Source: Pirellulaceae bacterium | GTDB taxonomy: Bacteria; Planctomycetota; Planctomycetia; Pirellulales; Pirellulaceae | Assembly: GCA_028066335.1 (NCBI GenBank) | Contig: JALCBQ010000001.1 | Coordinates: 13,480 to 77,479 of the forward strand | DNA length: 64,000 bases | Reading direction: 5' to 3' | Shown here: positions 16,551-54,623 of the stretch, piece by piece | Numbering within the stretch: the first letter of the stretch is position 1 | Layout: each line of letters starts with the position of its first letter | Notes under the pieces: model-generated | Seen by the model: only the letters and a program-made list of their open reading frames with translations | The model's database searches: none | Told to the model about the DNA's origin: nothing | Translations under genes and position numbers: made by a program

Positions 16551-17069
16551 TTCGTAATCCGACTGTTAGAGACAAAGTATCGGTCGGAGAGGCTGTTTTG
16601 GCCTTAAGCTGCTAGCTTTTATTTGGCTGTTTGGGGCCGTCGATCATCGGGAGTTAACTGGCCGCCGTTATAGGAATAAAACGCCAGCCCCAAGAGATAT
16701 CTTGTGTCCTTCCAAAAGAAGAGAAAATCGATCAAAATAACTTATCCTGCAGATAGTAAGGTGGGGCTATTTGTAGTAAAACAAATGGGTCAGAAAGTCG
16801 CTTTAGAGGGCTTGATATTTGGAGGGATTTCTCCTCGAGATTGGAGCCGTCTGGGTCGGGCAGGCGACTTGAGACAAGTGCAAAGAATACACAGAGTAGG
16901 AAGACTGTTCTTTCTTCGGGTTCTTAGGAGGAGTGGTTTGAGATAAAGATTACTGCTTTCCTCTTCTATTTTTCGTATAAATGGGGCTTTTTTACCAAAT
17001 AATTGGCCAAAATAAGGGTATTTTTCTACCCATATCAGGCTGTTATATATACCTAGTAAGGACTGTGTT

Positions 17070-18620: not shown

Positions 18621-18840
18621 TCGATTTCAAGGGAGTTTCCCTTTGGGCAAATGCTTTTGATTTGGCAGTTGACTTCGGTGAGCTGCTTTTTTTTAAAGTT
18701 TTTTTGCAAGGGGCGAATTCTTGTTTTGGCGATAGTCCAAAATGCTCTTGTCTTAGAAAAATAATTATCTTATAGATGGGCAGGGCAGAGAGACTTTCGC
18801 CATTTTTAAAGCATTGTTTGAATTCAAGGATGAGTTCTCT

Positions 18841-19890
18841 ATGAACAGAATGTCGGGTGCGTTGCTGTCAGTGGTTATTGCCATTGGTGGTTTCTTTTTC
18901 TTTAAGAATTTTGAAATAACAGGGTTAGAGGGGGTTTCGTTTCGGCCACGTGGTGAGCATGTCGATGATGGAGCCGACCAGGGACAGGGTAGTGTTACCA
19001 AGACATCAGGTGAACAGGGATCTGGTTTATCAGGAGGGGGGACATCTTTTTCAGAAGGTTCTGCCCATCGAAAAGATTCTATAAAAATCGCCTCGTTTAA
19101 TATTCAGGTTTTTGGAACCTCCAAGTCGAATAAACCTGATGTAATGGCCAAGCTGGCCAATATTGTACGACGATTTGATGTTGTTGCCATTCAGGAAATT
19201 CGCTCTAAAAACCAAGATATTATTCCACAGTTTGTAAATCTTATTAACGCAACAGGGCGAAAGTACTCATTTGCGATCAGTGAACGGATTGGTCGAACTG
19301 TCAGTAAGGAACAATATGTATACATTTTCGATACGGAAACTTTATTACTTGATCGGACAAAATTATACACCGTTCCCGATCATAACGACCTTCTTCACCG
19401 AGAGCCATTTGTCGGTTGGTTCCGTACTCGGGGCCCTCCTGCCGACAAAGCATTTACTTTTACGTTGGTCAATATTCACACCGACCCCGATGAGACCAAG
19501 CAAGAGCTGGATGCACTCGCTGATGTCTATCGTTACGTAAAAAATGATGGACGAAACGAAGACGATGTGATTATTTTAGGAGACCTTAACGTCGATGAGC
19601 ATCACCTTGGTCGCCTTGGGAGTATCCAGGGAATGACCAACGCTATTACTGATGTACCGACAAACACGAGAGGGACCAAACAGTACGATAATCTGATTTT
19701 TCACGGGATGCATACCGACGAATATTTACGCCGATTTGGTGTTTTTGACCTTAAAAGAGAGTTTAATATTAGCGAAGCAGAGGCACTGAGAATTTCAGAC
19801 CATCAGCCTGTATGGGGGGAATTCAGTATCTACGAAGGTGGGCCTGATGTCGGTATTGCAAACAAACCCAATCTACCTGTCAATCGTTGA
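18841..19890 (+). CDS. Secreted/anchored endonuclease-exonuclease-phosphatase (DNase I-like) family protein
   Basis: Hydrophobic N-terminus (ALLSVVIAIGGFFFF) followed by a Gly/Ser-rich linker. Then IKIASFNIQVFG, VVAIQEIR, NIHTDP, GDLN and SDHQPVW, which are EEP/DNase I catalytic motifs. The ATG at 18841 is preferred over the TTG at 18814. Confidence 0.8.
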   Translation: MNRMSGALLSVVIAIGGFFFFKNFEITGLEGVSFRPRGEHVDDGADQGQGSVTKTSGEQGSGLSGGGTSFSEGSAHRKDSIKIASFNIQVFGTSKSNKPDVMAKLANIVRRFDVVAIQEIRSKNQDIIPQFVNLINATGRKYSFAISERIGRTVSKEQYVYIFDTETLLLDRTKLYTVPDHNDLLHREPFVGWFRTRGPPADKAFTFTLVNIHTDPDETKQELDALADVYRYVKNDGRNEDDVIILGDLNVDEHHLGRLGSIQGMTNAITDVPTNTRGTKQYDNLIFHGMHTDEYLRRFGVFDLKREFNISEAEALRISDHQPVWGEFSIYEGGPDVGIANKPNLPVNR

Positions 19891-19988
19891 TCATGTAAAG
19901 TATCTTTGCGTTTACAGTAGAGGCGACTCTGCCTAAGCTTTTCCTGCGGCAAGACTCAAGTTCTCAGCAAAAAAGAGTTATTCAAAAT

Positions 19989-20034
19989 GAGACCTTCAGA
20001 ATCTGAAGCATCAGATTTCAGGGTCTCTTTTTTT
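19989..20034. terminator. Intrinsic terminator between convergent genes
   Basis: GAGACC...ATCTGA-agca-TCAGAT...GGTCTC compound hairpin followed by TTTTTTT on the + strand, with an A-run just upstream. It lies between the stops at 19890 (+) and 20044 (-). Confidence 0.7.
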
Positions 20035-20043
20035 ATTCTGCCT

Positions 20044-20868
20044 TTAGTGATTTTCGCTCCACGGGTTTTCCCAGTGCCCCCAATTTTCCAGGTATTCTTG
20101 GTAAATCGAGCAGACTTTGGACTGATCTTCTACCCAACGTTTGGTTTTGGATAGAAGGGCCTGCTCTTCACTAAGCGAGAGCTGCCCTAACATGACCCGA
20201 CTTCGTAGGAAGAGGAAGTAGGTATCCAGAACATCACATCGGCAATAGTCGTTTATTTCAGCAAGTTTACCATCGTGAAACATGTCTTGAACCATGTCAC
20301 CTTGAACCCGCATTTTTCCCGGTTTTCCTAAAAGGTTTGCTGCAAGGTTCAGCCCTCCATTGAATCGGGTCGCTCCAAAGTTTGTAAGAAGATCTTGAAG
20401 ATCAAAATGGGCCGAGGTGTTATAGCGATTTCTTGGCTGTTCATAGCTTGGGGCATGAAGCCGAAACCATTCCGGGACGCTAATGCCATATCGAAAAGCG
20501 GCAAGTTCTAGGAGAGGAACATCAAAGGTGCGGCCATTAAAAGTCACAAGAGTCGGCTTTTTATAGGCTTGCCAACCTTGCCAAAAATGTTGCGTAATTA
20601 TGTGAGGACGAAATTGGGGTTCGTCCAAAACAACAAGGTCAATGAGTTCAAAATTAGCCCCAATTTTTGCGAGAGCAAGAGAAACGGGTAGTTGGAATGT
20701 ATAAGGGATAAAATCGGAGCCTCGAGTTTCCAGTAGCTCTTTGCGGTATTTTTGAATCGCCTCATTAGGAGAAAGTTCTTCATCGGGAAAATGGATCGTT
20801 GAAATAAGCTTGCCATCAGCGACACTTTCAATATCAAAAACAAAATACTGAATTTTTTGTTCTGGCAT
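20044..20868 (-). CDS. Predicted 3-prime-5-prime exonuclease, PolB-exonuclease-like (RNase H fold)
   Basis: 274 aa. YFVFDIES (ExoI DxE) at the N-terminus, LVTFNGRTFDVPLL (ExoII-like) and DYCRCDVLDTYFLF (ExoIII-like Y..D). This matches my recollection of the 'predicted exonuclease related to PolB exonuclease domain' family. Confidence 0.72.
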   Translation of the reverse strand: MPEQKIQYFVFDIESVADGKLISTIHFPDEELSPNEAIQKYRKELLETRGSDFIPYTFQLPVSLALAKIGANFELIDLVVLDEPQFRPHIITQHFWQGWQAYKKPTLVTFNGRTFDVPLLELAAFRYGISVPEWFRLHAPSYEQPRNRYNTSAHFDLQDLLTNFGATRFNGGLNLAANLLGKPGKMRVQGDMVQDMFHDGKLAEINDYCRCDVLDTYFLFLRSRVMLGQLSLSEEQALLSKTKRWVEDQSKVCSIYQEYLENWGHWENPWSENH

Positions 20869-25115: not shown

Positions 25116-28100
25116 TTAAGCAGGTTTTTTGATTTTGTTAAGAAGTTTATCAATCCCTTTTTTAATCTGGTCGTCGACGGTTTTTTGCAAAGTTGATTGG
25201 AGAAGTTGTTGGATACCTCGCTTGTCAATCTGAGGAGATAATAGTGTTCCAGTAAGGGGCAATGCAAGACGTTGATTTTGTAAGTTAGCCAATGCTCGGT
25301 TTGCATTTGCCCATTTTGGTGGCACGAGGAATTCTACAAGAAGGTTTATTTGTTTGTCTAGAGTAACCGAGCCTTGGGTTTGAACAGTGATTCCCTGAAC
25401 CTGCATAACAAAATTACGGTGTGTAACGATTTCATTGATCATTTGAATAGGAACTTTTTGGGGTGGCAAGAGCAACCAGGTTGTGTCGGCAGCAAGGAGC
25501 TGATTGAGATCACCAAGGTTACTGAGTTGGTTGATTTGAGAAATCAGAGTTGTGATTTCCTGGGCAACAGGGCCGGGGCCTACACGTCCTTGATGGATTT
25601 CAAGGGTTGCAGCGACCTCGCTTTTACTGGAGTCAGAAAGTGCGAACATCGCTTTTTGCACGTCCAGCGAGAATCGGCCGTTGGCCCGTGTCGCTTCGGC
25701 AACGATCGGAGTGGCATATTGGAGCCAGTTCTGACACATTTCTGGGGTGATTTCAATATCGGTAAAAAGCTTCCCCGTCGCTAATGTCAGAGGGAGTATG
25801 GGATCACCAAGGTCGAAAGTTGCAGTCGTCGTTAGTTCACCCCCGTTGACCTGTAGTTTAAGAGGCATCGTTGCGATAATGCCTTTTTGTAATGCAAGGC
25901 CAAATTCACCTTCGTTTATTGTAAATCCTTGTACGGCGACCTTCTGCCAGCCGATTTTTCCACTGGCAGTTAAATTGTCGGGCCACACAATTTGTCTTGT
26001 TGTTAGCTCTGAGGAAGTAATCGGTGTAATTGCCGAAGGTGACGGTTGGATAATGACCTCTTTCCAGTAGGGGAGATCGCCTTGGATTGAGAATGAATCG
26101 GTCCGCTCACCGACGAGTTCTAGTTTTGTCGCTAGAAACTGTTGGAGGTTTGGGCTAAGTTTTTGCAGATTATAAAGAATATTTCCTTGTAGGTCGATGG
26201 TGTGTGTTGTGCCATTTGGTGTTAAGCTCCCCCGAGCGTTCATTGCCGAGTGGATGGTACTTCCTTCGAGTTTAGAGAGGGTCCATTTACCCGTAGTAGG
26301 CGAGTAAGAAGCTTCTAGATTATTTTGGAGAAGTGGCTCTTGCCAAAGTGTTTTCCAGCTATTTTGATCAGGGACCCATTCGACAAGTTGCAGGTTTTCC
26401 CCGTGAAGTGCCAGATTAAAGTTGTTTGAATCTCCTTGAGGGAAGCTGTTCAATGCACCTTGCAACGCTCCAGCTCCGCGCCATGGAGCATCGCCTTCTT
26501 GTTCGAACCAATTCGAGATTTGCCATACATTGAGGTTGAACTGGAGGTTCCCTGTGAATTTTGAAGGATCGCCTACAGGAAGTGAGGTTCTATCGAGCAA
26601 AAGAGCAAGGCTGTTGCCTGTGAGTGAAAGTTTTTCAGCGCTTACTCTTTGGCTTTGTAAAAGGTACGAAAGGTCACCTTCGAGAACTATTTTAGGTTCG
26701 TTGATGGTAAGGCCGTATCCTGTAAATTTTCCCTCATTAATTTCAACCTTAAGGTTGGTTGTGGCGAGCTGTTCGGGTGAGGCCTGAAGCCTCCCTGTTA
26801 AGAAAAAGTTACCGCCTATCTCGTTCTCTTTTAACCCTTCGACAAATGGGATCCGATCTGCAAAGGTCGCCAAATTTCCTGTCGCCTCGATTTGAAAAGG
26901 CCACTCGCTCATGAGCGTTTTGGCGGGCAAAGATTGGAAAAGTACAGCACTAAGTTGATCATTTCCAGAGGCGACCTTGACCGTTAGCTTGTCAACAATC
27001 GTTTTGTCTGAGGTAAGGTCATCATTGTCGATTTTCATCTGTGCGTCGGTAATAAAAATCAACTTTTCTTCTTTCCAAGGGCGTTGGCCTTCTGAGGCGA
27101 GATGAAAATTTTGGGCGACGAGTTCTGCCCGAGCGGCTAAATGACTTTGGTCATTTTGATCCCACTGAATAGCCCCGTTAAGGTCACCTTGTAGTTCTGA
27201 AAAAGGAAGATTAAGAATAGGGGACATTTCATGCTTTAATTTGTTTAAATCGCCACTAAAACGAAGAAGGCCCTGCTTGATATTGCCACCCCCATTTGCC
27301 TGCAAAAAGGGAGAGTTAAGAGCGAGGTTATCAAGGCGAAGTTCTTGACTGAGATCAAAAGTGACCGAGGCATCCATTGCGGGAAGCGAAGAGACGCTCT
27401 GTTTCTTATCAATACCTTCGATGTTTTTAAGGGCGACCTGACCGGTGAATTTTTGGCTGCTAGCTTGTTGTGCGACGGAGAAAAGAAGTTGTCCATCGGT
27501 AATTTCTAACCCTTCCTGAATAAGGAGTGTTTTAGGGATGGCTTTACTCAGGGTAGCCAGATTCACTTGGCCTGTTGCTTGTGCTTCTGAGAGAGTTTGA
27601 AGGAGTTTTGTGTAGTCATCGAAGTTAAGAGGGAATGACCCTGAGGCGGAGACGTTCCCAAGATCGGCTACAGCCTCGAATGAAGTAATTTCTATCTTCT
27701 CTGTATCAATAATAAAGTCGCCTTGAACGTCAAAGTTCTGAATGGCTATTTTTTCCTCTGCGGCAAAACTTGGGTTTTGGTAGTGAATGCGAGAAGACCG
27801 TAGAGGAGTAAAAACAATTTGATGCTTTCCATTGGTAAGGAGCTCATATTTTCCTACCGCCGTGAGGTGACCGGCGAGAGGAAGAGGTTGAACCGGGAAG
27901 TTTTCTGTCGAAACATATCGATGTACAATAGGGTCAAGAAGGCCAAGGTTTACGTCGGTCGAGTCAAACGCAACAGTGCAGTGACTTGCACCAGTAGATA
28001 ACTCTGCGTCGCTTCGGGGATGATAGTCAATCGTTGCTGCAAACGTTCCATAGTCATTTTGAGAGGGGAATTTTTTGTTGAGAACTGTTTTCCCTTCAAC

Positions 28101-28745
28101 GACACAGTGGAGTTGATTTTCTTGGGTTGGATCGTATGTTAGCTCAGCAGCGATTTGATTAAGCTGCCATTTCTCGTTAGAACCTTTTTGAGCCACCATG
28201 AGGCTCCCGTTTTGGACAAGAAGGTCAAGGTTGATTTTGGAATCGGTGCTTTCCTGGTCCCATAGTGGTTTAAGAAGTTCTTCGAGATCGGATGATCCTT
28301 GCTCGACAGTGATAGAAATTTGTGGATCGGTCAAAATGATCGTGCCAAGGTTCGTTTGATCGGTTAGAAGAGTCAACAGTGAGTTCTCAGTTTTGGCCTG
28401 TCTAATGGTTACCAGGGTTGCTGAACCGTCTTCGGTTGTAAGCTTGATGTTGGTAAGTGTTACTGGTGAGAACCAGCCTAAAGAGAAGGAGCCAGCGCGC
28501 CCCTTTGCTGCAATGGGAAGTGAGCTCTGGAGGAGATAGTTAGGCAATGGCGTAAATGAGAGAATGGAGGGGGCTAAATAAAGAAGTAGAAAGAAGATTG
28601 TAAAAGAAAGGCTTCCACGAAGAATACGCCGTCTTTGTCGCTTGATTTTTTCGATACGTGATGTTTGACGGGAAGGTTGCCCTTGAGGGCTTTCAGATGT
28701 CGTTGGAAGTTCCGTAGTGGTCTCTCTTTGAGTCGGTTGCGTCAC
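25116..28745 (-). CDS. Large TM-anchored, beta-rich envelope protein, AsmA/TamB-like (tentative)
   Basis: 1209 aa, GTG start. The N-terminus is basic, followed by one TM helix (LSFTIFFLLLYLAPSILSF). The remainder is a very long Asn/Gln/Thr/Gly-rich predicted beta region without enzymatic motifs. This architecture is typical of AsmA-like bridge proteins. The assignment is by architecture only. Confidence 0.55.
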   Translation of the reverse strand: MTQPTQRETTTELPTTSESPQGQPSRQTSRIEKIKRQRRRILRGSLSFTIFFLLLYLAPSILSFTPLPNYLLQSSLPIAAKGRAGSFSLGWFSPVTLTNIKLTTEDGSATLVTIRQAKTENSLLTLLTDQTNLGTIILTDPQISITVEQGSSDLEELLKPLWDQESTDSKINLDLLVQNGSLMVAQKGSNEKWQLNQIAAELTYDPTQENQLHCVVEGKTVLNKKFPSQNDYGTFAATIDYHPRSDAELSTGASHCTVAFDSTDVNLGLLDPIVHRYVSTENFPVQPLPLAGHLTAVGKYELLTNGKHQIVFTPLRSSRIHYQNPSFAAEEKIAIQNFDVQGDFIIDTEKIEITSFEAVADLGNVSASGSFPLNFDDYTKLLQTLSEAQATGQVNLATLSKAIPKTLLIQEGLEITDGQLLFSVAQQASSQKFTGQVALKNIEGIDKKQSVSSLPAMDASVTFDLSQELRLDNLALNSPFLQANGGGNIKQGLLRFSGDLNKLKHEMSPILNLPFSELQGDLNGAIQWDQNDQSHLAARAELVAQNFHLASEGQRPWKEEKLIFITDAQMKIDNDDLTSDKTIVDKLTVKVASGNDQLSAVLFQSLPAKTLMSEWPFQIEATGNLATFADRIPFVEGLKENEIGGNFFLTGRLQASPEQLATTNLKVEINEGKFTGYGLTINEPKIVLEGDLSYLLQSQRVSAEKLSLTGNSLALLLDRTSLPVGDPSKFTGNLQFNLNVWQISNWFEQEGDAPWRGAGALQGALNSFPQGDSNNFNLALHGENLQLVEWVPDQNSWKTLWQEPLLQNNLEASYSPTTGKWTLSKLEGSTIHSAMNARGSLTPNGTTHTIDLQGNILYNLQKLSPNLQQFLATKLELVGERTDSFSIQGDLPYWKEVIIQPSPSAITPITSSELTTRQIVWPDNLTASGKIGWQKVAVQGFTINEGEFGLALQKGIIATMPLKLQVNGGELTTTATFDLGDPILPLTLATGKLFTDIEITPEMCQNWLQYATPIVAEATRANGRFSLDVQKAMFALSDSSKSEVAATLEIHQGRVGPGPVAQEITTLISQINQLSNLGDLNQLLAADTTWLLLPPQKVPIQMINEIVTHRNFVMQVQGITVQTQGSVTLDKQINLLVEFLVPPKWANANRALANLQNQRLALPLTGTLLSPQIDKRGIQQLLQSTLQKTVDDQIKKGIDKLLNKIKKPA

Positions 28746-31794: not shown

Positions 31795-34011
31795 CTATAG
31801 ATCAAAATAAAAAGTTTGCAATAGGGTGCGGTATAACCTTTGACCAATAGTTTGGTAACCGGTGTGGATATAGGCTGTCCCACTTCCGCCATTAAGTGTC
31901 GAGTCGGGGTTTTTCTCAAGTGGTACACTCGCCTTGTAAGAGACGTTTAGCGATGAAGTAAGTCTGCTTTTTTCGTTTCGAGATGGACTAGAGTCTTTTT
32001 CCCGATTTTCCAATAACGCTTGGTGTTGATGGTCATCTTGAGCGATATACTCAATCGTTCCCTGGAAAACTTTCCCTGGCTCACTCGTTAATGTTAAAGC
32101 GACAGTTTGGTTTTGTTTAATAAACTCGATTTTATTTTGTGGAATGGTAAGAATCGCTTCGAACTGATTAGTTGGGGCGATCTCCAGTAAAAGCTGATCA
32201 CCACGGAGGTAGGATCCTAGTTTTTCTTTTTTTAGAAGAGGTGCATTGTTGTTTGGAGTTGAGGTTGTCGCTTGTTGGTGACCAGTATAGCGGACTGGCA
32301 AATAGGCGGTTCCGGCTAGAGGAGAACGTATAGTTAGCCCTTCTTTCTCCTGTTGATATGCTTCGAGCTGTTCTGTGATTGCATCGATTTTTGCTTTTAA
32401 TCGTAAGAGGTCAAGGCTGGCATTGTTTTCCAAAAGTGCAAGCTGGTTAGCAGTCTGTTGCTCTAGTTCTGCTAACTCGAGATCTCCTTTGAGTTCTTCA
32501 ATTTGTCGTTCGAGCTCTCGGTTTTCAAGAAAAACAAGAGGCATTTCTTTGTCGACAACAGCCCCATTCGTAACATGGAAATCCTTTAGTTGTCCAGCGA
32601 CGGGAGGATAAACTTGAACGGCATTTTTGGGTTGAAGGTAGAACTTGCAACGGACCGAATAGGGGAGGGGAATCCAAAGGATACCAATGATAATACCAGT
32701 CAGGAGAGTCAACGAAATAAGGATAGATCTTGATTGGAGCATTGTTTGTTTTCCCGGGGTTCGAAGAAAGGAAACGAATCGGGTGGCAGGTAAAACCAAG
32801 AGTGTAAAGAGAGAGAGAAATACGAGTAATTGGCCGATGATTTGTAAGCCATAGGGTTTAAAAATATGGTAAAGCATCCAAAGAATTGATAAAGAGAGTA
32901 TCCAGCGGTAAACCAAACAGGCGACACTATACAGGGCAAAAATAATACGGTTCTTCTGGGGTAAAAAGGGATCGCGTTTCTCAGGGAGACCTAGACACCA
33001 TTTGCCTGCTGTTTGTCTTAGTGAGGCATTTGCCTTATCACGTAGGTTGGGTATTTCTAAATAATCTGAAAGGATGTAGTAACCGTCGAAACGCATGAGA
33101 GGGTTTGCGTTAAACAACAAGGTGCCAGTTGAACAAACGACCATCACATTCAGGGCTAAAAAATGAAGCAGCCCCTCTTGGGTAAACCACCACAAAAAGG
33201 TCGCCCCGGCCGCTAGCAAAATTTCAAAATAAATTCCACCTGCCCCAATTGTTATTCTTTGCCACTTGTTTGGTAAAGTCCAGCTGTCTGAGACATCGCA
33301 ATACAGACAGGGCATAAAGACCAGAAACATGACCCCCATCTCGTGGCATTCGCTTCCATAGTATTTGCAAGCAATTCCGTGACCAAATTCATGAATGATT
33401 TTGGTAATTGTTAGTGTGATTCCAAGGAGGAGCCAGTTTTCAGCAGAAAAGAAAGTATAAAAATCAGGAAGCCTTTCAGTAAATTCATTAAACTGAGAAA
33501 AAATTAAAAAAAGTGCCGAAAGGGCAAAGAAACCTCCAAAGGCGATAGCCGGTAAAGAGAATAACCATCCAAAATAATGGGTTGCTTTCTCCAGAATTGT
33601 TGTTGGATTCATCCCTGGGAGGCGGAGAAATAGAAAGTTCGAAAAGAGAGCAAGCCTCTTTTTTTGTTGGTTTTTTTGTTGTCTTTGGTATAAAACATCG
33701 CCTTGACCAGACTGCTCAGAAATAAGAAGGCCACTTTGATGGAGGGAGCCAAGAAAGTGTTCTAGTTCCTGAAGAGAGAGTTGTTTGGGAGCATGTTTTT
33801 CGTAAAATTGCTTTTGAATTTCGGCGACAGTTTTCTGCCCATCTAGTAACTGAAGAAGAGTGTACTCCTCTTCGGCAAAACGGTAATATTTAAGAGTAAG
33901 AGGGTCTTTTAGCAGCCAGTAGTTTTGTCCTTGATACGTCTGTACGACAGCTTTTAGTTCCGTTCGAAACCTTAAATTTAAAGGGCGAGTTGTTTCAATC
34001 GAAGAAGACAA
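31795..34011 (-). CDS. Fusion protein: PqqD/RRE-like N-domain + site-2-protease (peptidase M50) membrane core + HlyD-like periplasmic adaptor domain
   Basis: 738 aa. HEFGH at 33379-33393 and NANPLMRFDG at 33082-33111 are the S2P HExxH and NxxPxxxxDG signatures. Multiple hydrophobic helices. The C-terminal ~290 aa contain a heptad coiled coil (ELERQIEELKGDLELAELEQQ...) and a beta-rich end like membrane-fusion proteins. The N-terminal ~100 aa (YWLLKDPLTLKYYRFAEEEYTLLQLLDGQKTVAEI...) look PqqD-like. Confidence 0.85.
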   Translation of the reverse strand: MSSSIETTRPLNLRFRTELKAVVQTYQGQNYWLLKDPLTLKYYRFAEEEYTLLQLLDGQKTVAEIQKQFYEKHAPKQLSLQELEHFLGSLHQSGLLISEQSGQGDVLYQRQQKNQQKKRLALFSNFLFLRLPGMNPTTILEKATHYFGWLFSLPAIAFGGFFALSALFLIFSQFNEFTERLPDFYTFFSAENWLLLGITLTITKIIHEFGHGIACKYYGSECHEMGVMFLVFMPCLYCDVSDSWTLPNKWQRITIGAGGIYFEILLAAGATFLWWFTQEGLLHFLALNVMVVCSTGTLLFNANPLMRFDGYYILSDYLEIPNLRDKANASLRQTAGKWCLGLPEKRDPFLPQKNRIIFALYSVACLVYRWILSLSILWMLYHIFKPYGLQIIGQLLVFLSLFTLLVLPATRFVSFLRTPGKQTMLQSRSILISLTLLTGIIIGILWIPLPYSVRCKFYLQPKNAVQVYPPVAGQLKDFHVTNGAVVDKEMPLVFLENRELERQIEELKGDLELAELEQQTANQLALLENNASLDLLRLKAKIDAITEQLEAYQQEKEGLTIRSPLAGTAYLPVRYTGHQQATTSTPNNNAPLLKKEKLGSYLRGDQLLLEIAPTNQFEAILTIPQNKIEFIKQNQTVALTLTSEPGKVFQGTIEYIAQDDHQHQALLENREKDSSPSRNEKSRLTSSLNVSYKASVPLEKNPDSTLNGGSGTAYIHTGYQTIGQRLYRTLLQTFYFDL

Positions 34012-34042
34012 TGAGTTTCTCTTTGATCAAAAAATCAATGGT

Positions 34043-35017
34043 TTATTGATGAACTAACATTGAGGCATTCATTCCGGGGCGGAGTAACCACTGACCTTTG
34101 TGTTGCATGTTGTTTACTTCGGCGCGTATTCGGTAATTGTTTCCCGCCCCAACGATCGGATCGATTAAAGTGACTTGACCTTGAATTTGAAATTTCTGGT
34201 TGCCGGCAAGGCCTGCTTCAATGGTCACTGGCTTACCGAGTAAGTCGGAGGGGTTCGCTCGATCAACACGAATTCGGCCGACGACACGTAGCTTATCCAT
34301 TTGGATAATACGTAGTATCGGCTCACCAACGTTCACCCACTCTCCTTTTTGCTTTTGAATTTCCCAGATGAGTCCTTGGGTCGGTGCAACAATTTTTCTC
34401 CGTTGGATACTCAATTGCGAGGCGTCGACCTCATCTTGTTTTATTTCGGCAGTTAATTTGGCGACTTTAAGGTTAAGGCGGCTCCGGTCTATTTGAAGAG
34501 CGGCTTGTTCTCGGGCTAACTTTAGCCGGCGAATGTCGGCCTCGGGAACGGCACCAGGAGATCGTTTGTTTATTTGTTCGTCTTGTTCGAGTTCGGCCTT
34601 TGCCACGGCAAAAGCTGCCTCGGCAAATCGGACTTCGATATCATCGTTTGCTTCGACCTGAGCAGCAAGGAGTTGGCGATGGGAGGCCTTTTTTTGCAAT
34701 TGAGGCTGGTCGTCGTTTATCTGAACAAGGAGAGTGTTAGCCTGAACATAATCACCTTCTTTAATATTCATTGCAGTGATTGGGCCTGCCTCTTGGGCTG
34801 AGAGGCGTACATCTTGAATAAGGCTAACCAGGCAGAGAGGAATAACAATTGGTTCAGTGGCATGGCGATTTTGTTCTTTAGTAAGCTGAGTCGCCAGCAC
34901 TTGTTTCTTTTCAGGGAGAAAAAAGGAGAGGCAAAAGAGAGGTACCCCGACAATAAGAAGAGAAAAAGCAAGTTTTCTAAAAGAGGAGGTATAAAACCTA
35001 TAGGAGAAGTAGTTCAT
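34043..35017 (-). CDS. HlyD-family periplasmic adaptor (membrane-fusion protein)
   Basis: 324 aa. N-terminal TM helix (LAFSLLIVGVPLFCLSFF), a biotin-lipoyl-like segment (IKEGDYVQANTLLVQIND), a coiled coil, then IVAPTQGLIWEI and a beta-barrel-like C-terminus. Confidence 0.8.
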   Translation of the reverse strand: MNYFSYRFYTSSFRKLAFSLLIVGVPLFCLSFFLPEKKQVLATQLTKEQNRHATEPIVIPLCLVSLIQDVRLSAQEAGPITAMNIKEGDYVQANTLLVQINDDQPQLQKKASHRQLLAAQVEANDDIEVRFAEAAFAVAKAELEQDEQINKRSPGAVPEADIRRLKLAREQAALQIDRSRLNLKVAKLTAEIKQDEVDASQLSIQRRKIVAPTQGLIWEIQKQKGEWVNVGEPILRIIQMDKLRVVGRIRVDRANPSDLLGKPVTIEAGLAGNQKFQIQGQVTLIDPIVGAGNNYRIRAEVNNMQHKGQWLLRPGMNASMLVHQ

Positions 35018-35062
35018 AATAACGCTTCCATGAAAAGTAAATTTACAGTTTTGTTTTTGGCG

Positions 35063-37270
35063 TTACCACCAAAGAGCTGCTTTGGTTTGAATCGTTTCTA
35101 TAAAGTCCTGGAAAATGACATAACCAAGAGATTGGCGACCACATAAAATTTGGGCGCTAACACTTGCACTCGGTCGAAGATCAGGGATTTTTTCTCTCTC
35201 GACAGCAACATAGACAGGAACAAATTGTTTTCCTTCAGGGGTACGGGTCGTTGTCGTGTCGATTTGGGTCACGGTGCCGTAAAATGATTCTCCGGGAAGG
35301 GTCGCTAGAGTAAAGTGGACGGTGAGCTTTTCTTTTTTCTGGTGAGCAAGAAGGTGCTTAAGGCGACGTTCAGGGACCTGAAGTTCAAGTTGCCATTGGC
35401 CTGTCGCCTGAACGATTTTCATTAAAGTTTGTCCCTGTTGAACTGGCCGCTGGGTAAGTTGTTTTTTAACTTGCCACGTGGTGATTTGGCCATCAAGGGG
35501 ACTATGGATCGTCAGTTGTTTTTGTTTGAGCTGCTGCAGATGTTGTTGGCGGAGAATATTTTCCTCTTCTTGCCGTAGTTGGGTGAGGTTCCCGCTTACT
35601 TGTAATTCTTCTTGTTGGCTTAGCTTTTGATGGTTGAATTTTTGTTCATGGGCAAAAATTTTCTCTTGAACATTACGGAGATCACCTTCAAGCTTGTTGG
35701 TTTGAAGGTCAAAGTTAGCATTGTAGAGCTGAGCTAGTGGTTGGCCTGCTTTGACCTTTTGGCCGTGCTCAACAAAAACCTCCTCCACGAGGCCCTCATA
35801 AGGAGAGAAAACCTGTTGTCCGACAACGGGCTGCAGTTCGCCTTTTGCAAACATTTTAAAGTCGGCCGGTATACAGAATAAGGTTGCCAACGTAGCAAAG
35901 AAGATTAGGAAGAGAGTCGTAGTCCTAGACTGTGGAAGCTCCTTTCTGATCACCCCTAGTTTTTTCCAAAGAGGGAGTAGAAAAAGATGGCTATGTTCTT
36001 TCGCATTTCCTAAGGCAAGGGTGCTATGTTCTACAGCAGAGGCGATAAGATTTCGGTCTTTCGGCGCAAAGGTTCCTTGTTTTAGTCGTTCAAAGAGAAG
36101 CAATCCAACGAGATGTTTCTTTTTTTTCTTAGGATGTTCTTGGGAGGAGGTGTTACCTTCTCGGTAGAAAAGAGGCTCAATTCGAAGCGCCTTAGTATGG
36201 GACAGGTCAAGATAATGTTGTAGAGGTGCTTCAAGTTGAGGTGGAAGGGGAGCTATAGACTCATTCGCCGATGGGGATGGTTCCTCGTAGTGAAACGGTT
36301 TGAGAGTTTGGGAAACGCTCGAAACGAGCTTTGTTAGAGCAATATTTGTTTGCGAACGGGGTTGGATTTGGTCAATTCCACTAGTTGCTACGACCTCGAC
36401 TTTGGAGCCTCGAATATTGAGAAGACTTACTCGATCTACATTAGTGAGATGGCGGCCTTCATTCACGACGGTGTAAGCTGTCTTTTTCCAGTCAAGGGAT
36501 TGATGAACTTGTCGGATAAATTGTTGTTGTGGTTGCCACTGGCTTTGCATGCGGACGAGGTGACGGAGATGACGATCTTTAAAATAGGTCGATGCTAAAC
36601 GACTCATGTTTTGTAGAAAGTTGAGGTAGCCATGGCGGATTTTAGGGTCTTGTTGAGGGCGTTGGAAAATTTCGAGAAGTCCGATGACAGTTTTCCCTTT
36701 GGGGACATCTTGAGAAACATCAACGAGAGATTGATCAAGATAAAGTGGAACGATTATACGAAGATACCCTGTCGGATTCCCTTTTTCTCCTGGAAGGAGG
36801 ACTGTCGGTTTTGCTTTTTTTAAGAAGATGGCTAAGAATTGTTGGTGTTTTTCTTGAGTCTCTCTGTTTTGTAGAAGAGGCAGGTCATTGTTATTGACCT
36901 GAAAAGAGAGGTCAGAGATTACGCCTTTATCAATTTCCCATAGGAGACCGGCTGGAGCAGCGAGGGCTTCGACGACTCGTGGGAGAAATTCGCTGGCGAA
37001 GACGTGGGGATCAGGATTTTGGGCGATAATTGCTTCAATTTCGTGAACAAGAGACTGAATTTGTGAACGGGTTTCTAAAAGAAGTTTCTCGCCGATATGA
37101 TCGGCCGGGTTAGCTGATCGTTGAGAAGCTGAGTTAGGCAGTTGGTTTTCAGAAGGGTTGGCCGTGGGGAACGGGATCGTTGAATCGTCTTTTCTGCTCT
37201 TCCTTTTTGTGTGAAGAGTTCTTTTTTGAGAAGAAGATTTTTGTGGTTGAGGTATCGGCTCGGACGACAT
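35063..37270 (-). CDS. Tandem GAF-like cytoplasmic domains + TM + HlyD-like periplasmic adaptor
   Basis: 735 aa. Residues ~60-235 and ~250-425 each show a GAF-like pattern (...AGLLWEID...RIIVPLY...VIGLLEIFQR, and DRVSLLNIRGSKVEVVATSG...IEPLF...LVGLLLFERL). TM helix TTLFLIFFATLATLFCIP. Then a lipoyl-like VKAGQPLAQL, a long coiled coil, IHSPLDGQI and a beta-rich end. Confidence 0.7.
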   Translation of the reverse strand: MSSEPIPQPQKSSSQKRTLHTKRKSRKDDSTIPFPTANPSENQLPNSASQRSANPADHIGEKLLLETRSQIQSLVHEIEAIIAQNPDPHVFASEFLPRVVEALAAPAGLLWEIDKGVISDLSFQVNNNDLPLLQNRETQEKHQQFLAIFLKKAKPTVLLPGEKGNPTGYLRIIVPLYLDQSLVDVSQDVPKGKTVIGLLEIFQRPQQDPKIRHGYLNFLQNMSRLASTYFKDRHLRHLVRMQSQWQPQQQFIRQVHQSLDWKKTAYTVVNEGRHLTNVDRVSLLNIRGSKVEVVATSGIDQIQPRSQTNIALTKLVSSVSQTLKPFHYEEPSPSANESIAPLPPQLEAPLQHYLDLSHTKALRIEPLFYREGNTSSQEHPKKKKKHLVGLLLFERLKQGTFAPKDRNLIASAVEHSTLALGNAKEHSHLFLLPLWKKLGVIRKELPQSRTTTLFLIFFATLATLFCIPADFKMFAKGELQPVVGQQVFSPYEGLVEEVFVEHGQKVKAGQPLAQLYNANFDLQTNKLEGDLRNVQEKIFAHEQKFNHQKLSQQEELQVSGNLTQLRQEEENILRQQHLQQLKQKQLTIHSPLDGQITTWQVKKQLTQRPVQQGQTLMKIVQATGQWQLELQVPERRLKHLLAHQKKEKLTVHFTLATLPGESFYGTVTQIDTTTTRTPEGKQFVPVYVAVEREKIPDLRPSASVSAQILCGRQSLGYVIFQDFIETIQTKAALWW

Positions 37271-37617
37271 TTATTTTTGGTGAGGTAAATGGAAAGATTT
37301 CAGGCAAGAGACTTGCCCCGCAGTTTAGTGAAAAGGCAGGGAATATTCCTTCGAGATAATTTGTAAAAATGGGACACAGCTAAAAGGGAGAGGGACGACG
37401 ACTATAGCAAAATAGAACGTTTGGGAGAATGGCAGTTCGGTGGCGGGTATGGTTGAGGGAATAAAATGATTGTAAAGGATAATTTGGGGTAGCTTTTCTT
37501 GACGGGCTGTGCGAAAATATCGAGCTTTGGCCCCCTTTATCTAGCGGACTATTAGGGACGTTCTGTAGTCGTTTATGGGGTTAAGGCTCTTAAGAAATGT
37601 GGTTCCCATAAATCTCC

Positions 37618-38134: not shown

Positions 38135-38246
38135 AAGCTTTGGTAATGTTATCAGAAGGTTTCCTTTTGGAGGCCTGTGCGGTATCTTGGTAGGTTCTGT
38201 TTATATAGAAATTATTATTTATTTAGCTCAAGGTAGGAGAAATTTC

Positions 38247-39890
38247 GTGAGAAAGTTTGTAAGCAAAACAATCCTGTGTTTGGCGGCCGTTGCCTTGTTG
38301 GCTTTGCCCCTTACTCGGGCAAATGCACAAGATGTTGAGTTGGCAGGTGGCGTTAAGCCGACGATGATTGTTGCAACAGCGAGTGTCGATGAGCTGCTCT
38401 CTGATGCGAATTATATTGCTACCGCCGTTGGTAACCCTGAGTCTGTGATGATGGCCCAGTTTATGCTTCGTGGAATGATTAACGGCGTTGACACAGGGAA
38501 ACCGGTTGGTGCTGTTCTCGGATTTGATGGTATCGAGCCAGTCCCCTTTGTTATGGTTCCGGTGAGTAATTTAGACGCCATCATGGCGAGTGTAGGACAG
38601 GCAGGGACAGTTGAGTTTGAAGAGCTGGAGGAAAACCTTTATTCACTAGAGATTCCTCCAGGAGAGACGGTCTATCTAACGGTTGATAATGGGTATGCCC
38701 TTTTGGCGACCGACCTTGATGTTCTGGAGAACTCTTCGGTCTCCCCTGAAAAATTGCTTTCCAAAATGACGGAAAAGCACGATATTGCGGTTGATATCTT
38801 TGTTCAGAATTTCCCTGCAGAGTTCAAGGACCAATTCCTACATGAAATGAAATTAGGGTACGAAAATTCTATTCGTTTTATGAGCGAAGAAGATCGTATT
38901 AATTCCCAAGCGGTCATGGACACGATGTTCAATAATTTTGAACGTATCTTTGATGAACTTACCCGGGTAAGTTATGCAATCGGTGTTGATGAAGATAGTA
39001 CCAAAACTTATCTCGATGTTGCTGTAACGGCCCTTCCTGGTTCTGAAATTGATGAACTCATTGAAAGTTCTCGCTCGTTGCAATCAGATTATCTTGGGTT
39101 CTTGGTCTCTGACGCAGCTGTTACTTACAACGCAGTCGGTAAATCGGCCCAAAATGACATCGATAATGTTGTTGCAATGCTCGACAATGTCGAGACACAA
39201 GTCCTTGATCAAATGGAGGGTGAACTTAGTGGAGAAGATCTTCTCCTTGCTCAGGGTATTGTGAAAAAACTTCTTGATGTCACCAAAGAGTCCGTCGCTC
39301 AGGAAAAAAATGATGGTGGAGCTGCCCTGATTCTAAAGCCGGGCCAGTTTACCTTTGTAGCTGGCGCTTATACGGAATCTGGTGACAAAATCACTGATGC
39401 AGTTAGCGATCTCTTTACCCTTATTTCAGAAAAGGGCGAAGGTGTACCGATTGATCTTTCGACCTTTAGCGATGGTGGAATCGACTTTCATAAGATGGTC
39501 GTCACCTTGCCTGAATTAGACGAAGGACGAAAGGTATTTGGCGAAACGGTCGAAGTCTTGATTGGCAACAATAATAAGTCTGTCTATGTCGGGTTAGGAA
39601 ACGAGTGCCTTCCAACTTTAAAGAAGATAATCAGTAACCCTGGTTTACCAACTGGCGCAAAAGAGTTACCTACTCAGTTTAATATTTCGGTTGTTCCTAT
39701 ATTGAACTTTGTTGCTGCATTAGATGAGAACCCTGTCATGGATGCTGTTGCTCAACAGGCTGAAAAGTATGCTGGTGACGACAGCCTTCGATTGTCTGCC
39801 GATTACATCCCGAATGGTGTTTCGATCCGTCTTCAAATTGATGAAGGTATTTGGAAAATTATTGGTGAAGTGGCACAGTTAGGCCAATAA
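38247..39890 (+). CDS. Secreted protein of unknown function, paralog A of a tandem pair
   Basis: GTG start 8 nt after AGGTAGGAGA. Signal peptide VRKFVSKTILCLAAVALLALPLTRANA-QD. ~547 aa, acidic, with no enzymatic motif recognised. It is collinear with the next gene. The ORF-track start at 38187 is less likely, because it has no signal peptide context. Confidence 0.75.
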   Translation: MRKFVSKTILCLAAVALLALPLTRANAQDVELAGGVKPTMIVATASVDELLSDANYIATAVGNPESVMMAQFMLRGMINGVDTGKPVGAVLGFDGIEPVPFVMVPVSNLDAIMASVGQAGTVEFEELEENLYSLEIPPGETVYLTVDNGYALLATDLDVLENSSVSPEKLLSKMTEKHDIAVDIFVQNFPAEFKDQFLHEMKLGYENSIRFMSEEDRINSQAVMDTMFNNFERIFDELTRVSYAIGVDEDSTKTYLDVAVTALPGSEIDELIESSRSLQSDYLGFLVSDAAVTYNAVGKSAQNDIDNVVAMLDNVETQVLDQMEGELSGEDLLLAQGIVKKLLDVTKESVAQEKNDGGAALILKPGQFTFVAGAYTESGDKITDAVSDLFTLISEKGEGVPIDLSTFSDGGIDFHKMVVTLPELDEGRKVFGETVEVLIGNNNKSVYVGLGNECLPTLKKIISNPGLPTGAKELPTQFNISVVPILNFVAALDENPVMDAVAQQAEKYAGDDSLRLSADYIPNGVSIRLQIDEGIWKIIGEVAQLGQ

Positions 39891-40004: not shown

Positions 40005-40068
40005 GGGGCCCTTCTTGTATACCAGATGTTCTGACATTTAGGTTACCTTTTCTTTGCCCTTTCTTATC

Positions 40069-41763
40069 ATGAGGCACATTGTGAGACTTCTATACCGATT
40101 CTCAATGGCTCTTATTTGGCTTTCTTCTTCTCCTTTGATGGCAGGGTACTCTCAGGAAGTAGTTGTAAAAAGTGAGGCCCAACTTGCGGCATTCCAGGAG
40201 GAAGAGATCGGTTTTGTAGCTATTAAAAATCTGGGACGGGTCCAGGCGATTTTTCAAAAATATTCTCAAAAATTAGGGCTAGGGGCAGAGGCCATTTTCG
40301 TACAAGCTGCTCTCAACGGCATGAGCACAGTCGTGGATAACGAGCGACCAATAGGTATCGTCTTCGATCACTCAAAGGAGAAAAAAGAGTACACTCTCGT
40401 GTTACCCGTTAAAAATAAAAAAGGATGTGAAGACCTTTTTCATAGCTTTGCCTCTCTTGGAAAAGCAGAAATTCAGAAACATGAGGGTTACGAGACTGTG
40501 AGTATCCCAGGTTATCCTAGACCTTTAGCAGTCTCGATTACCGATCAATGGTGGACGATTACCTTAAACCATGAGGCGTTACAAGAGGTTCAAAATATAG
40601 AAGGGCTTGAAGAACACTTACAAAAGCTCACCGAGGCCAATGATGTTAGCCTATGGATGCCAATTAAGCCACTCATTGCTGACTTTGAGAATTTAATACC
40701 CCAGGTACTAGATACCAACGAGGTGATTGACCCTCGGTTTTCTACCGGCTTACCACCTGAGAAATTGCACGAATTACAAACGTTACGGGCGTGTGTGCAG
40801 TGGGCAAAACCTTATGTTCTGGAGGGGGAATACCTTGAGCAAGGGCTAACCTTTGACTTTGAAAAAGAACAGATCCGCTACCATTTTCACTATCAGCCGG
40901 CAGATGGATCTTCTATTGAGAAGGGGCTAACGGGCAAGCATATTAAGAGTTCCCAAGGAGGGTTTGTTAGTAATGAAGTCGCATTTTTTTCCCAGTGGAA
41001 TTTTGAACTAGGAGAAGACCTCATCAATGTGTTCCAGCTCCTTTGCAAGCAGCTTAAGGCACAGATGCGAGGAAGCTTAGAAACCGAAATGCCTGCTCAA
41101 GTCCGCGAGATGGTAATTTCTCTCGGTGACCGCCTGCTAAACCTTATTGAAGAAACGGCGGCGGAAAAACGGATCTATGGAGGAGTTCGGTTTGAATTCG
41201 CAGGAATGGAAACGACCTCCGTTGTCGGGACCGGTCTCGCTGATGGATATGAGCTCGAAGATATTATCGGAACCCTAATGGAAGAGGGGGGGGAGTACGA
41301 TGCTATAGTCTACGATTACGATTGGTATAAAGGTTTCAACATTCATAAAATTGAAGTTCCAGCTGGTGATCAGGAAGACGAAATAGCAGCTGCCGATTTT
41401 TTTCTTGCCATCGCTGAAAAAGAGGCTTATCTAGCTCTTGCAGATGAGCGAGGTCGCCTAGCTCTAAGAAGAGTTCTAAAAGATGCTGCAGAAAGAGAAG
41501 AAGACCTTAAGGCGGCTGGCTTTATCGTACAAATTAACGGTAAACATTTTGCCGGAGGAATTTACAATACTTTCCCCGAGGAAAGCTCGATTCCTAGTAT
41601 TCAACAAAAAAGTGAGGCACTCCAAAAATTTCTCACCGACCCGAAATTACAAGAGAAAAGTGACTTAATTCAACTAAAAGTGACCCAGGAAAAGGGAGCG
41701 GTTCAGGGCACCCTGATTTTTGATGAGGTAAACCTAGGGTGGCTAATCCCGTTAATGAAATAG
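40069..41763 (+). CDS. Secreted protein of unknown function, paralog B of a tandem pair
   Basis: ATG at 40069 gives the signal-like N-terminus MRHIVRLLYRFSMALIWLSSSPLMAG. ~564 aa. Shares collinear weak similarity blocks with paralog A (see findings). Confidence 0.75.
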   Translation: MRHIVRLLYRFSMALIWLSSSPLMAGYSQEVVVKSEAQLAAFQEEEIGFVAIKNLGRVQAIFQKYSQKLGLGAEAIFVQAALNGMSTVVDNERPIGIVFDHSKEKKEYTLVLPVKNKKGCEDLFHSFASLGKAEIQKHEGYETVSIPGYPRPLAVSITDQWWTITLNHEALQEVQNIEGLEEHLQKLTEANDVSLWMPIKPLIADFENLIPQVLDTNEVIDPRFSTGLPPEKLHELQTLRACVQWAKPYVLEGEYLEQGLTFDFEKEQIRYHFHYQPADGSSIEKGLTGKHIKSSQGGFVSNEVAFFSQWNFELGEDLINVFQLLCKQLKAQMRGSLETEMPAQVREMVISLGDRLLNLIEETAAEKRIYGGVRFEFAGMETTSVVGTGLADGYELEDIIGTLMEEGGEYDAIVYDYDWYKGFNIHKIEVPAGDQEDEIAAADFFLAIAEKEAYLALADERGRLALRRVLKDAAEREEDLKAAGFIVQINGKHFAGGIYNTFPEESSIPSIQQKSEALQKFLTDPKLQEKSDLIQLKVTQEKGAVQGTLIFDEVNLGWLIPLMK

Positions 41764-54558: not shown

Positions 54559-54623
54559 GTCACCCTTATTTGTCACCCTTATTTGTCACCCTTATTTGTC
54601 ACCCTTATTTGTCACCCTTATTT
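54559..54623. repeat. Perfect tandem repeat, 5 x 13 bp (GTCACCCTTATTT)
   Basis: Counted base by base: units at 54559, 54572, 54585, 54598 and 54611, with no mismatches. The last unit supplies the final Lys codon and the TAA stop of the minus-strand gene ending at 54618. Confidence 0.97.

Follow-up and report, generated by a model that had tools for sequence, protein, structure and literature searches.

Described systems related to the cassette

The closest described relative of the genes analysed here is a gene module reported by Kamneva, Poudel & Ward (PLoS One 2015; PMC4452313). The genes in question, A, B and C, constitute a cassette in a 64 kb stretch of a Pirellulaceae metagenome-assembled genome (MAG); this whole stretch of analysed DNA is called the window below. 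In the 2015 report, a secondary SecA_DEAD protein is co-encoded with clusters of the Peptidase_M50/HlyD, HlyD/biotin-lipoyl and GAF/HlyD types, and it was proposed that SecA_DEAD serves as the ATPase and the M50 protein as a membrane pore that replaces the ABC transporter (PMC4452313). The biological role was described as "completely unknown", and the components can be encoded elsewhere in the genome (PMC4452313). Substrates, DUF3467 and the RRE-like domain were not identified in that paper, and follow-up work on the module was not found in the open-access literature.

The module and the cassette consist of the same three protein types and lack an ABC transporter, and the module is found in Planctomycetes, Proteobacteria and others. 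Protein C corresponds to the M50 and HlyD fusion, protein B to the HlyD protein, and protein A to the GAF-HlyD type, with GAF recognized at the family level. The cassette differs from the module in that the defining SecA_DEAD gene is missing from the window. Very probably, A, B and C represent this 2015 module in planctomycetes, as a conserved, pump-less assembly with three adaptors and an M50 protease. The initial annotation of this DNA had considered the composition to be without characterised precedent. That statement does not stand as to composition, although the module is still uncharacterised functionally.

Canonical type I secretion systems (T1SS) and tripartite efflux pumps, such as HlyBD-TolC, MacAB-TolC, AcrAB-TolC and TriABC-OpmH, have the same adaptors as the cassette, composed of lipoyl, alpha-hairpin and beta-barrel domains. 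TolC, the duct in T1SS and efflux, is co-encoded in proteobacterial relatives of the cassette. TriABC-OpmH has two adaptors and is a precedent for more than one adaptor species; the cassette has three. Unlike these systems, the cassette includes no ABC, RND or MFS pump, and in its inner-membrane part an adaptor is joined to a domain that resembles a site-2 protease. Typical T1SS cargo includes giant repeat adhesins. The presumed signal for the cassette is N-terminal, in contrast to the C-terminal signal of RTX-type T1SS substrates.

The closest characterised relatives of C are M50 leader peptidases, RRE-dependent or acting on peptides made by ribosomes and modified after translation (RiPPs), namely MpaP and EpeP/YydH. 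The initial annotation had named YydH as the nearest lead, and this lead was a good one. MpaP, of the daptides, is an RRE-dependent intramembrane leader peptidase. Like C, MpaP/DapP has an N-terminal RRE fused to an M50 intramembrane metalloprotease, and the homology is full-length. The NCBIfam model for the daptide RRE-peptidase (NF041824) covers residues 22-415 of C at model positions 9-375 of 379 (E = 4e-56), with a score of 190.6 bits, which is below the equivalog cut-off of 300. C is distinct from MpaP in its extra C-terminal adaptor, its extra transmembrane (TM) helices, its diderm hosts and the lack of adjacent precursor or modification genes. The context of daptide biosynthetic gene clusters (precursors ending in Thr, MpaB/C/D/M) was not found near the cassette. 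EpeP has been proposed to combine leader cleavage and export of its peptide. EpeP/YydH/LiaK and C share the M50 core, but the similarity is very weak (44.1 bits against model NF058609, E = 2e-11), far below the equivalog cut-off of 225. A radical-SAM enzyme, an ABC exporter and a precursor are encoded in yydFGHIJ, and the cassette has no such neighbours.

The comparison of the cassette with homologous operons, described below, tips the balance modestly toward a function. Somewhat more likely than not, the trio is the core, in the inner membrane and periplasm, of a TolC-dependent exporter that resembles type I systems but has no pump, and that acts on proteins with an N-terminal LE-x-R-x-LL motif.

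Domain composition of the three proteins

The listing of open reading frames (ORFs) agrees with the initial annotation that the three genes are co-directional on the minus strand, with spacers of 45 bp between A and B and 31 bp between B and C. Coordinates of the genes and their domains are in Table 1. All three proteins match HlyD_3 and HlyD_D23 of Pfam above the gathering cut-offs, and A also matches Biotin_lipoyl_2. In profile searches, the families of A and C match adaptors of solved structure, including MacA, EmrA, MexJ, HlyD, LipC and the two-adaptor TriAB fusion (6vej); 6vej is the best match in the Protein Data Bank (PDB) for the A profile. The AlphaFold2 (AF2) models of A and C, whose mean predicted local distance difference test (pLDDT) values are 84 and 73, respectively, match MacA, AcrA, MexA and EmrA with a Foldseek probability of 1.0. 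In the whole-chain Foldseek searches with these two models, the top 50 matches were all adaptors, and the M50, RRE and GAF parts were hidden by them. The adaptor-like periplasmic part that had been proposed for all three proteins is thus supported by Pfam in each of them and also by profiles and structure comparison in A and C.

Protein C has a cytoplasmic RRE-like N-terminal domain, seven TM helices and a periplasmic adaptor, based on hydropathy and the model. The TM helices 5-7 place the following adaptor domain in the periplasm. The proposal of an intact M50 core fused to an adaptor is corroborated. Peptidase_M50 (PF02163) is matched with 33.6 bits against a cut-off of 27.2, and the same family is matched by all 32 members of the C family. 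Their alignment shows that the residues of HExxH (H207, E208 and H211) and of NxxPxxxxDG (N301, N303, P304, D309 and G310) are invariant. C215, C222, H223, E224, C235 and C238 are also invariant in the 32 homologues, in a region of low model confidence. We know of no cluster of this type in canonical M50 proteases. The cluster may form another metal site, or else a re-entrant loop that binds the substrate.

For the N-terminal domain of C, the PqqD-like character that had been assigned finds support at the level of the family. Pfam PqqD is matched by 7 of the 32 family members, proteobacterial homologues are named "PqqD family" by the Prokaryotic Genome Annotation Pipeline (PGAP), the NCBIfam daptide model extends over this domain, and the predicted order of beta-beta-beta-alpha-alpha-alpha in the AF2 secondary structure fits the RRE fold. 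The window copy itself has no Pfam match to PqqD.

Protein A has a cytoplasmic N-terminal region, one TM helix and then a periplasmic adaptor, as indicated by hydropathy and the model. The initial annotation had described two GAF modules in A. The presence of two alpha/beta modules is consistent with the model, and Pfam GAF is matched by 37 of the 42 members of the A family. The window copy is below the threshold. A comparison of modules 1 and 2, made to see whether GAF is duplicated in A, was not significant (hhalign E = 0.095), and the description of two GAF modules is only partly borne out. The gating of the cassette by a cytoplasmic ligand that had been proposed would rest on the GAF fold and is speculative. 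The profile of the GAF region of A also matches the HlyD proteins of ~620 aa in the operons of Mesorhizobium and Pontibrevibacter. Protein B has one TM helix (aa 16-34) followed by the adaptor, based on hydropathy. It is homologous to the genes of 260-310 aa annotated as "RND adaptor" in proteobacterial operons.

Conservation of the cassette in Planctomycetota

Species genomes with a member of the C family number at least 600, and the 80 with the best matches all belong to Planctomycetota. Relatives of C form more than 4,500 clusters at 90% identity. The half of C comprising RRE and M50 has matches in 12,145 clusters (50% identity), of which 4,024 reach E <= 1e-30, and its best 150 matches are nearly all fusions of ~740 aa. 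An artefact in which a frameshift merged two genes was considered for the M50-HlyD fusion and rejected, given the thousands of full-length homologues of ~740 aa.

The best 80 C loci were used for the analysis of neighbourhoods in planctomycetes; in 63 of them the DNA extends far enough upstream for the arrangement to be assessed. Of these 63 loci, 54 (86%) have A, B and C contiguous with the order kept, while their flanks vary. In this survey the trio is a fixed cassette and in no case lies within an ABC or RND operon. None of the outcomes by which the initial annotation would have been refuted was observed. Clustering of the neighbouring ORFs in the 80 loci revealed no recurrent pump or outer-membrane factor. 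A pair of ABC-2 ATPase and permease genes was considered, but only 6-7 loci have it, at a distance of ~7 kb and on the other strand, and it was judged to be lineage synteny. In the window itself, a Pfam scan and tblastn with planctomycete SecA2 found no genes for ABC, RND, MFS, TolC/OEP or SecA. The earlier observation that a pump, an outer-membrane factor or a substrate gene is not nearby is therefore valid for the whole 64 kb, and the flanks are infA and a SUKH-like gene, as had been noted.

The remaining nine loci (L005, L010, L011, L025, L058, L066, L068, L075 and L080) do not have contiguous A, B and C. Eight of them show C without adjacent A or B; L075 has both, not contiguous. Among the neighbours in these nine loci are genes for DUF481, BON and cytochrome c. 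The partners of C may have their genes in other parts of these genomes, or these loci may represent a different sub-type. In a Planctomycetaceae MAG (L048), there is a paralogous pair at 16579-20600, ~4 kb downstream of the main cassette. It encodes a 618-aa HlyD protein and a 722-aa RRE-M50-HlyD protein, and the latter matches the daptide_HExxH model (E = 4e-49).

Two genes accompany the cassette in part of the planctomycete loci. SecA2 is directly upstream in 7 of the 80 loci. Planctomycete SecA2 is composed of SecA_DEAD, PP_bind and P-loop domains, and it has no match to wing or scaffold domains. DUF3467 (PF11950, ~110 aa) is next to the cassette in 28 of the 80 loci, always on its strand and no more than 308 bp away, either upstream of A or downstream of C (for example, L019 6463-6798 and L051 12397-12729). 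No solved relative of DUF3467 was found by sequence, and no characterisation was found in the open-access literature. The idea that it is a SecB-like chaperone was dropped as unsupported; the best hit in the PDB profile search was chorismate synthase (E = 0.046), and nothing was credible.

Small ORFs were also searched for. No ORF resembling a precursor peptide is conserved in the 80 loci, where only DUF3467, infA and antisense shadow ORFs were clustered, and no small conserved ORF was found in the flanks of the cassette or in the rest of the window. These results bear on the possibility that the trio is a RiPP-type device for small peptides, in which C cleaves the leader of a ribosomal peptide encoded elsewhere and the adaptors export the peptide. 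The best curated matches of the N-terminal half of C are indeed RiPP leader peptidases of the MpaP and YydH/LiaK types, its architecture is RRE-like, and EpeP may be a case where cleavage and export are combined. However, both NCBIfam scores are far below the cut-offs, and neither a conserved small ORF nor a modifying enzyme is found in the 80 planctomycete loci or in the ten proteobacterial operons described below, where the recurrent neighbours are giant proteins. The cassette is near-universal in Pirellulales and is set among housekeeping genes, unlike a biosynthetic gene cluster. A small-peptide device is thus considered quite unlikely.

Homologous operons in Proteobacteria

Homologues were found in 88 records of the annotated plasmid collection PLSDB by tblastn. 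Ten operons, either annotated or ORF-called, were inspected. They are from Azospirillum, Pseudosulfitobacter, Kosakonia, Escherichia, Magnetospirillum, Thalassospira, Variovorax, Cupriavidus, Mesorhizobium and Pontibrevibacter, and thus span alpha-, beta- and gammaproteobacteria with otherwise unrelated flanks. In all ten, genes for a short adaptor, a longer HlyD protein and an RRE-M50-HlyD protein are directly downstream of a gene for a large repeat protein. The repeat protein is giant (3,750-16,240 aa) in nine operons and 492 aa long in Magnetospirillum. No ABC, RND or MFS pump is present in the ten operons, nor is a small conserved ORF or a modifying enzyme present beside the cassette. Hidden Markov model (HMM) and phmmer searches confirmed, for each of the corresponding parts, the homology to A, B and C of the window and to planctomycete SecA2 and DUF3467.

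TolC is annotated in six of the ten operons. DUF3467 is found in three (L093 9678-9974, L099 16622-17053 and L100 17734-18102), and SecA2 is also found in three (L086 11029-13053, L099 22015-24102 and L100 22055-24082). The SecA2 genes of these operons are mis-annotated in RefSeq as "DEAD/DEAH box helicase" or "prepilin peptidase", while their similarity to planctomycete SecA2 is evident (phmmer E of 1e-136 to 1e-149). Two subtypes are recognized. Subtype (i) has a long HlyD protein of ~620 aa with DUF3467 and/or SecA2, and the long HlyD protein matches the GAF-region profile of A in two operons. Subtype (ii) has an HlyD protein of ~450 aa and adjacent TolC, with no ATPase. The planctomycete cassette belongs to subtype (i).

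Homologues are also present on IncF-type plasmids, with 18 PLSDB records for E. coli and 8 for Citrobacter. The E. coli plasmid NZ_CP104683.1 has the full homologous system in one locus (L091 1-13776), in the order of an Ig-like protein (4,457 aa), TolC, an adaptor (293 aa), an HlyD protein (457 aa) and an RRE-M50-HlyD protein (714 aa).

The fuller operons add TolC, the SecA2-like ATPase, DUF3467 and a giant gene to the trio, so the parts missing from the cassette of the window are likelier to be encoded elsewhere in its genome than to be dispensable. A TolC-like duct encoded elsewhere is plausible, since TolC is annotated in more than half of the operons. The cassette is a real, conserved and uncharacterised machine, but it is probably not self-contained, contrary to what the initial annotation had suggested.

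Could the three proteins be orphan adaptors that serve distant ABC, RND or MFS pumps, with the M50 fusion as an accessory for quality control? Adaptors can be encoded apart from their pumps, and two-adaptor pumps exist, as exemplified by TriABC, whose adaptor fusion structure is the best match of A. But the trio is never beside a pump in ~90 loci of the two phyla, TolC is often adjacent in Proteobacteria, and the M50 domain is the only polytopic partner that is consistently conserved. This explanation is the least probable of those considered.

Another explanation is signalling by regulated intramembrane proteolysis. When the GAF modules sense a ligand, the M50 domain would cut a regulator tethered to the membrane, and the adaptors would be no more than periplasmic scaffolds or sensors. 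The intact active site of M50 and the family-level GAF in A fit such a function, which is also the field where canonical site-2 proteases, such as RseP and SpoIVFB, act. On the other hand, no sigma/anti-sigma pair or transcription factor is recurrent beside the cassette in the 80 planctomycete loci. The N-terminal domain of C is RRE-like, not PDZ or CBS. In relatives, the operon also encodes TolC, SecA2 and giant secreted proteins, and three different alpha-hairpin adaptors argue for a conduit. Signalling is, therefore, very unlikely to be the role of the cassette.

The N-terminal motif of candidate substrates

Nine of the ten repeat proteins adjacent to the proteobacterial operons have the sequence LE-x-R-x-(L/M)(L/F/Y) near the N-terminus. 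It was read directly in eight: Pseudosulfitobacter (MEALEPRFLLSAD), Azospirillum (MALEPRFMFDAA), Kosakonia (SLEPRMLFDGA), E. coli (RFALESRQLFDGA, the Ig-like protein of NZ_CP104683.1), Variovorax (MALEARYMFDAA), Thalassospira (EPIEPRILLSAD), Cupriavidus (LALEPRLLYDAA) and Mesorhizobium (FEALEPRLLLSAD). The ninth, from Pontibrevibacter, is named LEPR-XLL by PGAP. The NCBIfam model LEPR-XLL (NF012209) scores 30.2 on the Pseudosulfitobacter protein against a cut-off of 17, and Pfam Planc_extracel (PF07595) shows a weak match at the same residues.

In planctomycetes, an N-terminal "export signal" with the consensus RRLxxExLExRxLLA was reportedly first noted by Studholme in 2004. Planc_extracel was derived from this consensus, which is a proposed export signal, and in Tuwongella 52 proteins carry the motif, among them 8 of the 10 longest (PMC8567305). 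No machinery assigned to this signal was found in the open-access literature. Nothing relevant to the present system was found there for LEPR-XLL and DUF4347 either, and the "Giant genes" preprint deals with a different system.

In 8 planctomycete loci, proteins of 500-2,100 aa that bear the motif are encoded downstream of C at a distance of up to 1.5 kb (for example, RLESRQLLAVT, LEALEDRRLLAFT, QLESRQLLDAA and LETLERRDCP). Compared with all other ORFs, an enrichment of motif-bearing ORFs in proximity to C is suggested (Fisher odds ratio 3.1, p = 0.034). A weak signal of proximity is as expected if most substrates are scattered around the genome. An HMM of the motif recovered above noise only the six planctomycete instances on which it was trained, and so it gives no independent evidence.

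The cargo might be of another kind. The trio would then be an exporter of the Kamneva type, with SecA2 as the motor and M50 as the pore, and the adjacency to giant genes would be incidental or lineage-specific. The association of the module with SecA_DEAD is published (PMC4452313) and is reproduced here, and the proximity signal for motif-bearing proteins in planctomycetes is weak. Nevertheless, the adjacency of large proteins in ten of ten operons and of the motif in nine of ten, across three classes of Proteobacteria with unrelated flanks, is not readily incidental, and the motif is common to Planctomycetes too. Export of other cargo is unlikely, although it deserves more weight than the other alternatives discussed above.

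Proposed mechanism

Export of LE-x-R-x-LL proteins by the cassette and its partners could proceed as follows. The substrate class in Planctomycetes, the leader binding, the cleavage, the stoichiometry, the translocation path and the energisation are all points that we infer, and the mechanism is speculative. The substrates would be large surface proteins with a basic stretch followed by LE-x-R-x-(L/M)(L/F/Y) at the N-terminus. The leader would be bound by the cytoplasmic PqqD/RRE-like domain of C. The protease core of C, whose active site is predicted near the cytoplasmic face, would then remove the leader and/or provide the passage through the inner membrane. The HlyD-type domains of A, B and C would form one mixed periplasmic sleeve, which would dock onto a TolC-like duct in the outer membrane. 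The GAF-like modules of A would regulate the machine or dock accessory factors; candidates are the wing-less SecA2-like ATPase and DUF3467, both of which may dock on this region of A. The substrates, the duct and any ATPase would be encoded outside the cassette.

Several observations weigh against this mechanism or against the substrate class. Genes for the substrate, TolC, SecA2 or DUF3467 are not present in the window, and no ORF there bears the LE-x-R-x-LL motif; the links to all these parts rest on homology. In the proteins of the window, PqqD/RRE and GAF are undetected by Pfam alone. The curated motif models score below the cut-off on planctomycete proteins, and the definition of the motif behind the weak proximity statistic was partly post hoc. 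The ten proteobacterial operons are a small sample, all on plasmids or chromids, and the 492-aa neighbour in Magnetospirillum, the sole exception among the ten, is missing the motif. No energy source is evident in most of the operons. To our knowledge, a seven-TM domain of the site-2 protease (S2P) type is not known to conduct proteins. Two further difficulties are that subtype (ii) has no ATPase and that conduction of a megadalton protein by an S2P fold is improbable.

With these points in mind, we tentatively propose, with confidence somewhat short of even, that the cassette represents a distinct class of secretion system in diderm bacteria. In this class, an RRE-guided site-2-type metalloprotease fused to an adaptor would replace the ABC transporter of T1SS. 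It would recognise, and probably remove, the LE-x-R-x-LL leader on giant adhesin-like proteins, and it would work with two further adaptors, TolC and, in one subtype, a wing-less SecA2 ATPase and DUF3467. It would also be the export route for planctomycete proteins with the RRLxxExLExRxLLA signal. As far as the open-access literature shows, the link to substrates is new here, while the composition of the module was already published in 2015.

Gene layout and other contents of the window

The cassette is flanked by infA on one side and a weak SUKH-like gene on the other (Table 1). The region between A and infA is divergent, and no consensus sigma-70 site was found in it. A sequence scan found no terminator-like sites on the coding strand between A, B and C. 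The number of sites in the promoter and terminator scan was below that in shuffled controls, and the scan is hence uninformative.

Table 1. Positions of the cassette genes, their domains and the upstream region in the window.
Feature	Position	Strand	Description	Basis
Gene A	35063..37270	-	735 aa; N-terminus disordered, then two GAF-like alpha/beta modules (cytoplasmic), a single TM helix and an HlyD-type adaptor (periplasmic)	ORF, Pfam, AF2, Foldseek
Putative cytoplasmic sensor or docking region of A	35981..37105	-	module 1, aa 56-255; module 2, aa 261-430	AF2 secondary structure
TM anchor of A	35858..35914	-	aa 453-471, single	hydropathy scan
Periplasmic adaptor of A	35126..35848	-	aa 475-715; lipoyl-like domain, alpha-hairpin (helices 518-547, 552-584), beta-barrel	Pfam, profiles, AF2, Foldseek
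Gene B	34043..35017	-	324 aa; N-terminal TM anchor (aa 16-34), short HlyD-type adaptor	ORF, Pfam, hydropathy
Gene C	31795..34011	-	738 aa; cytoplasmic PqqD/RRE-like domain, 7-TM site-2-protease (M50) core, periplasmic HlyD-type adaptor	ORF, Pfam, NCBIfam, AF2, hydropathy
PqqD/RRE-like domain of C	33712..33984	-	~aa 10-100; putative peptide-binding; predicted fold beta-beta-beta-(beta)-alpha-alpha-alpha	AF2, NCBIfam daptide_HExxH, Pfam PqqD in family
M50 catalytic core of C	33082..33576	-	aa 146-310; HExxH at nt 33379-33393, NxxPxxxxDG at nt 33082-33111	Pfam PF02163, alignment
Cys/His/Glu cluster of C	33298-33369	-	aa 215-238, directly after HExxH helix	32-sequence alignment
TM helices 5-7 of C	32671..32949	-	aa 355-447	hydropathy scan, AF2 helices
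Periplasmic adaptor of C	31810..32670	-	aa 448-734; lipoyl-like domain, alpha-hairpin (helices 498-524, 531-557), beta-barrel	Pfam, profile, AF2, Foldseek
Divergent intergenic region, gene A / infA	37271..37617	.	347 bp; presumed cassette promoter region	

The remainder of the window contains housekeeping genes, such as those for ValRS, aspartokinase, two GroEL copies, DnaJ, GrpE, RpoD, MTHFR and RecJ, and others. No Rfam matches or tRNAs were found in the window. The two GroEL (Cpn60) paralogues are in tandem on the plus strand (8642-10354 and 10882-12501), followed by DnaJ and GrpE (12624-13763 and 13821-14357), and constitute a chaperone cluster. Two plus-strand ORFs at 38187-39890 and 40054-41763 (567 and 569 aa) have no Pfam match. 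Relatives of the former recur beyond infA in 13 planctomycete loci, which we read as lineage synteny with the cassette. The minus-strand ORF at 25116-28745 (1,209 aa) has no Pfam match either, and its relatives are downstream of the cassette in 11 loci. Its counterpart in Bythopirellula shows a faint match to DUF748; that it is AsmA/TamB-like is a guess. The minus-strand ORF at 54618-56195 (525 aa) shows weak matches to alpha/alpha-toroids of squalene-hopene cyclase and LanC, of the prenyltransferase or terpene-cyclase type, and is unrelated to the cassette.

Implications

If the proposed function is true, the cassette would represent an uncharacterised secretion route in at least hundreds of species, including Planctomycetota, alpha-, beta- and gammaproteobacteria, and the IncF-type plasmids of E. 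coli and Citrobacter. A conduit of TolC and adaptors would receive its substrates from a component that is not a pump of the ABC, RND or MFS type. Leader recognition of the RiPP style, with RRE and M50, would be tied to the secretion of proteins thousands of residues long. The plasmid-borne version in E. coli would be a tractable model, open to standard genetics. For planctomycetes, the cassette would provide the machinery for their specific N-terminal export signal, which marks most of their largest surface proteins.

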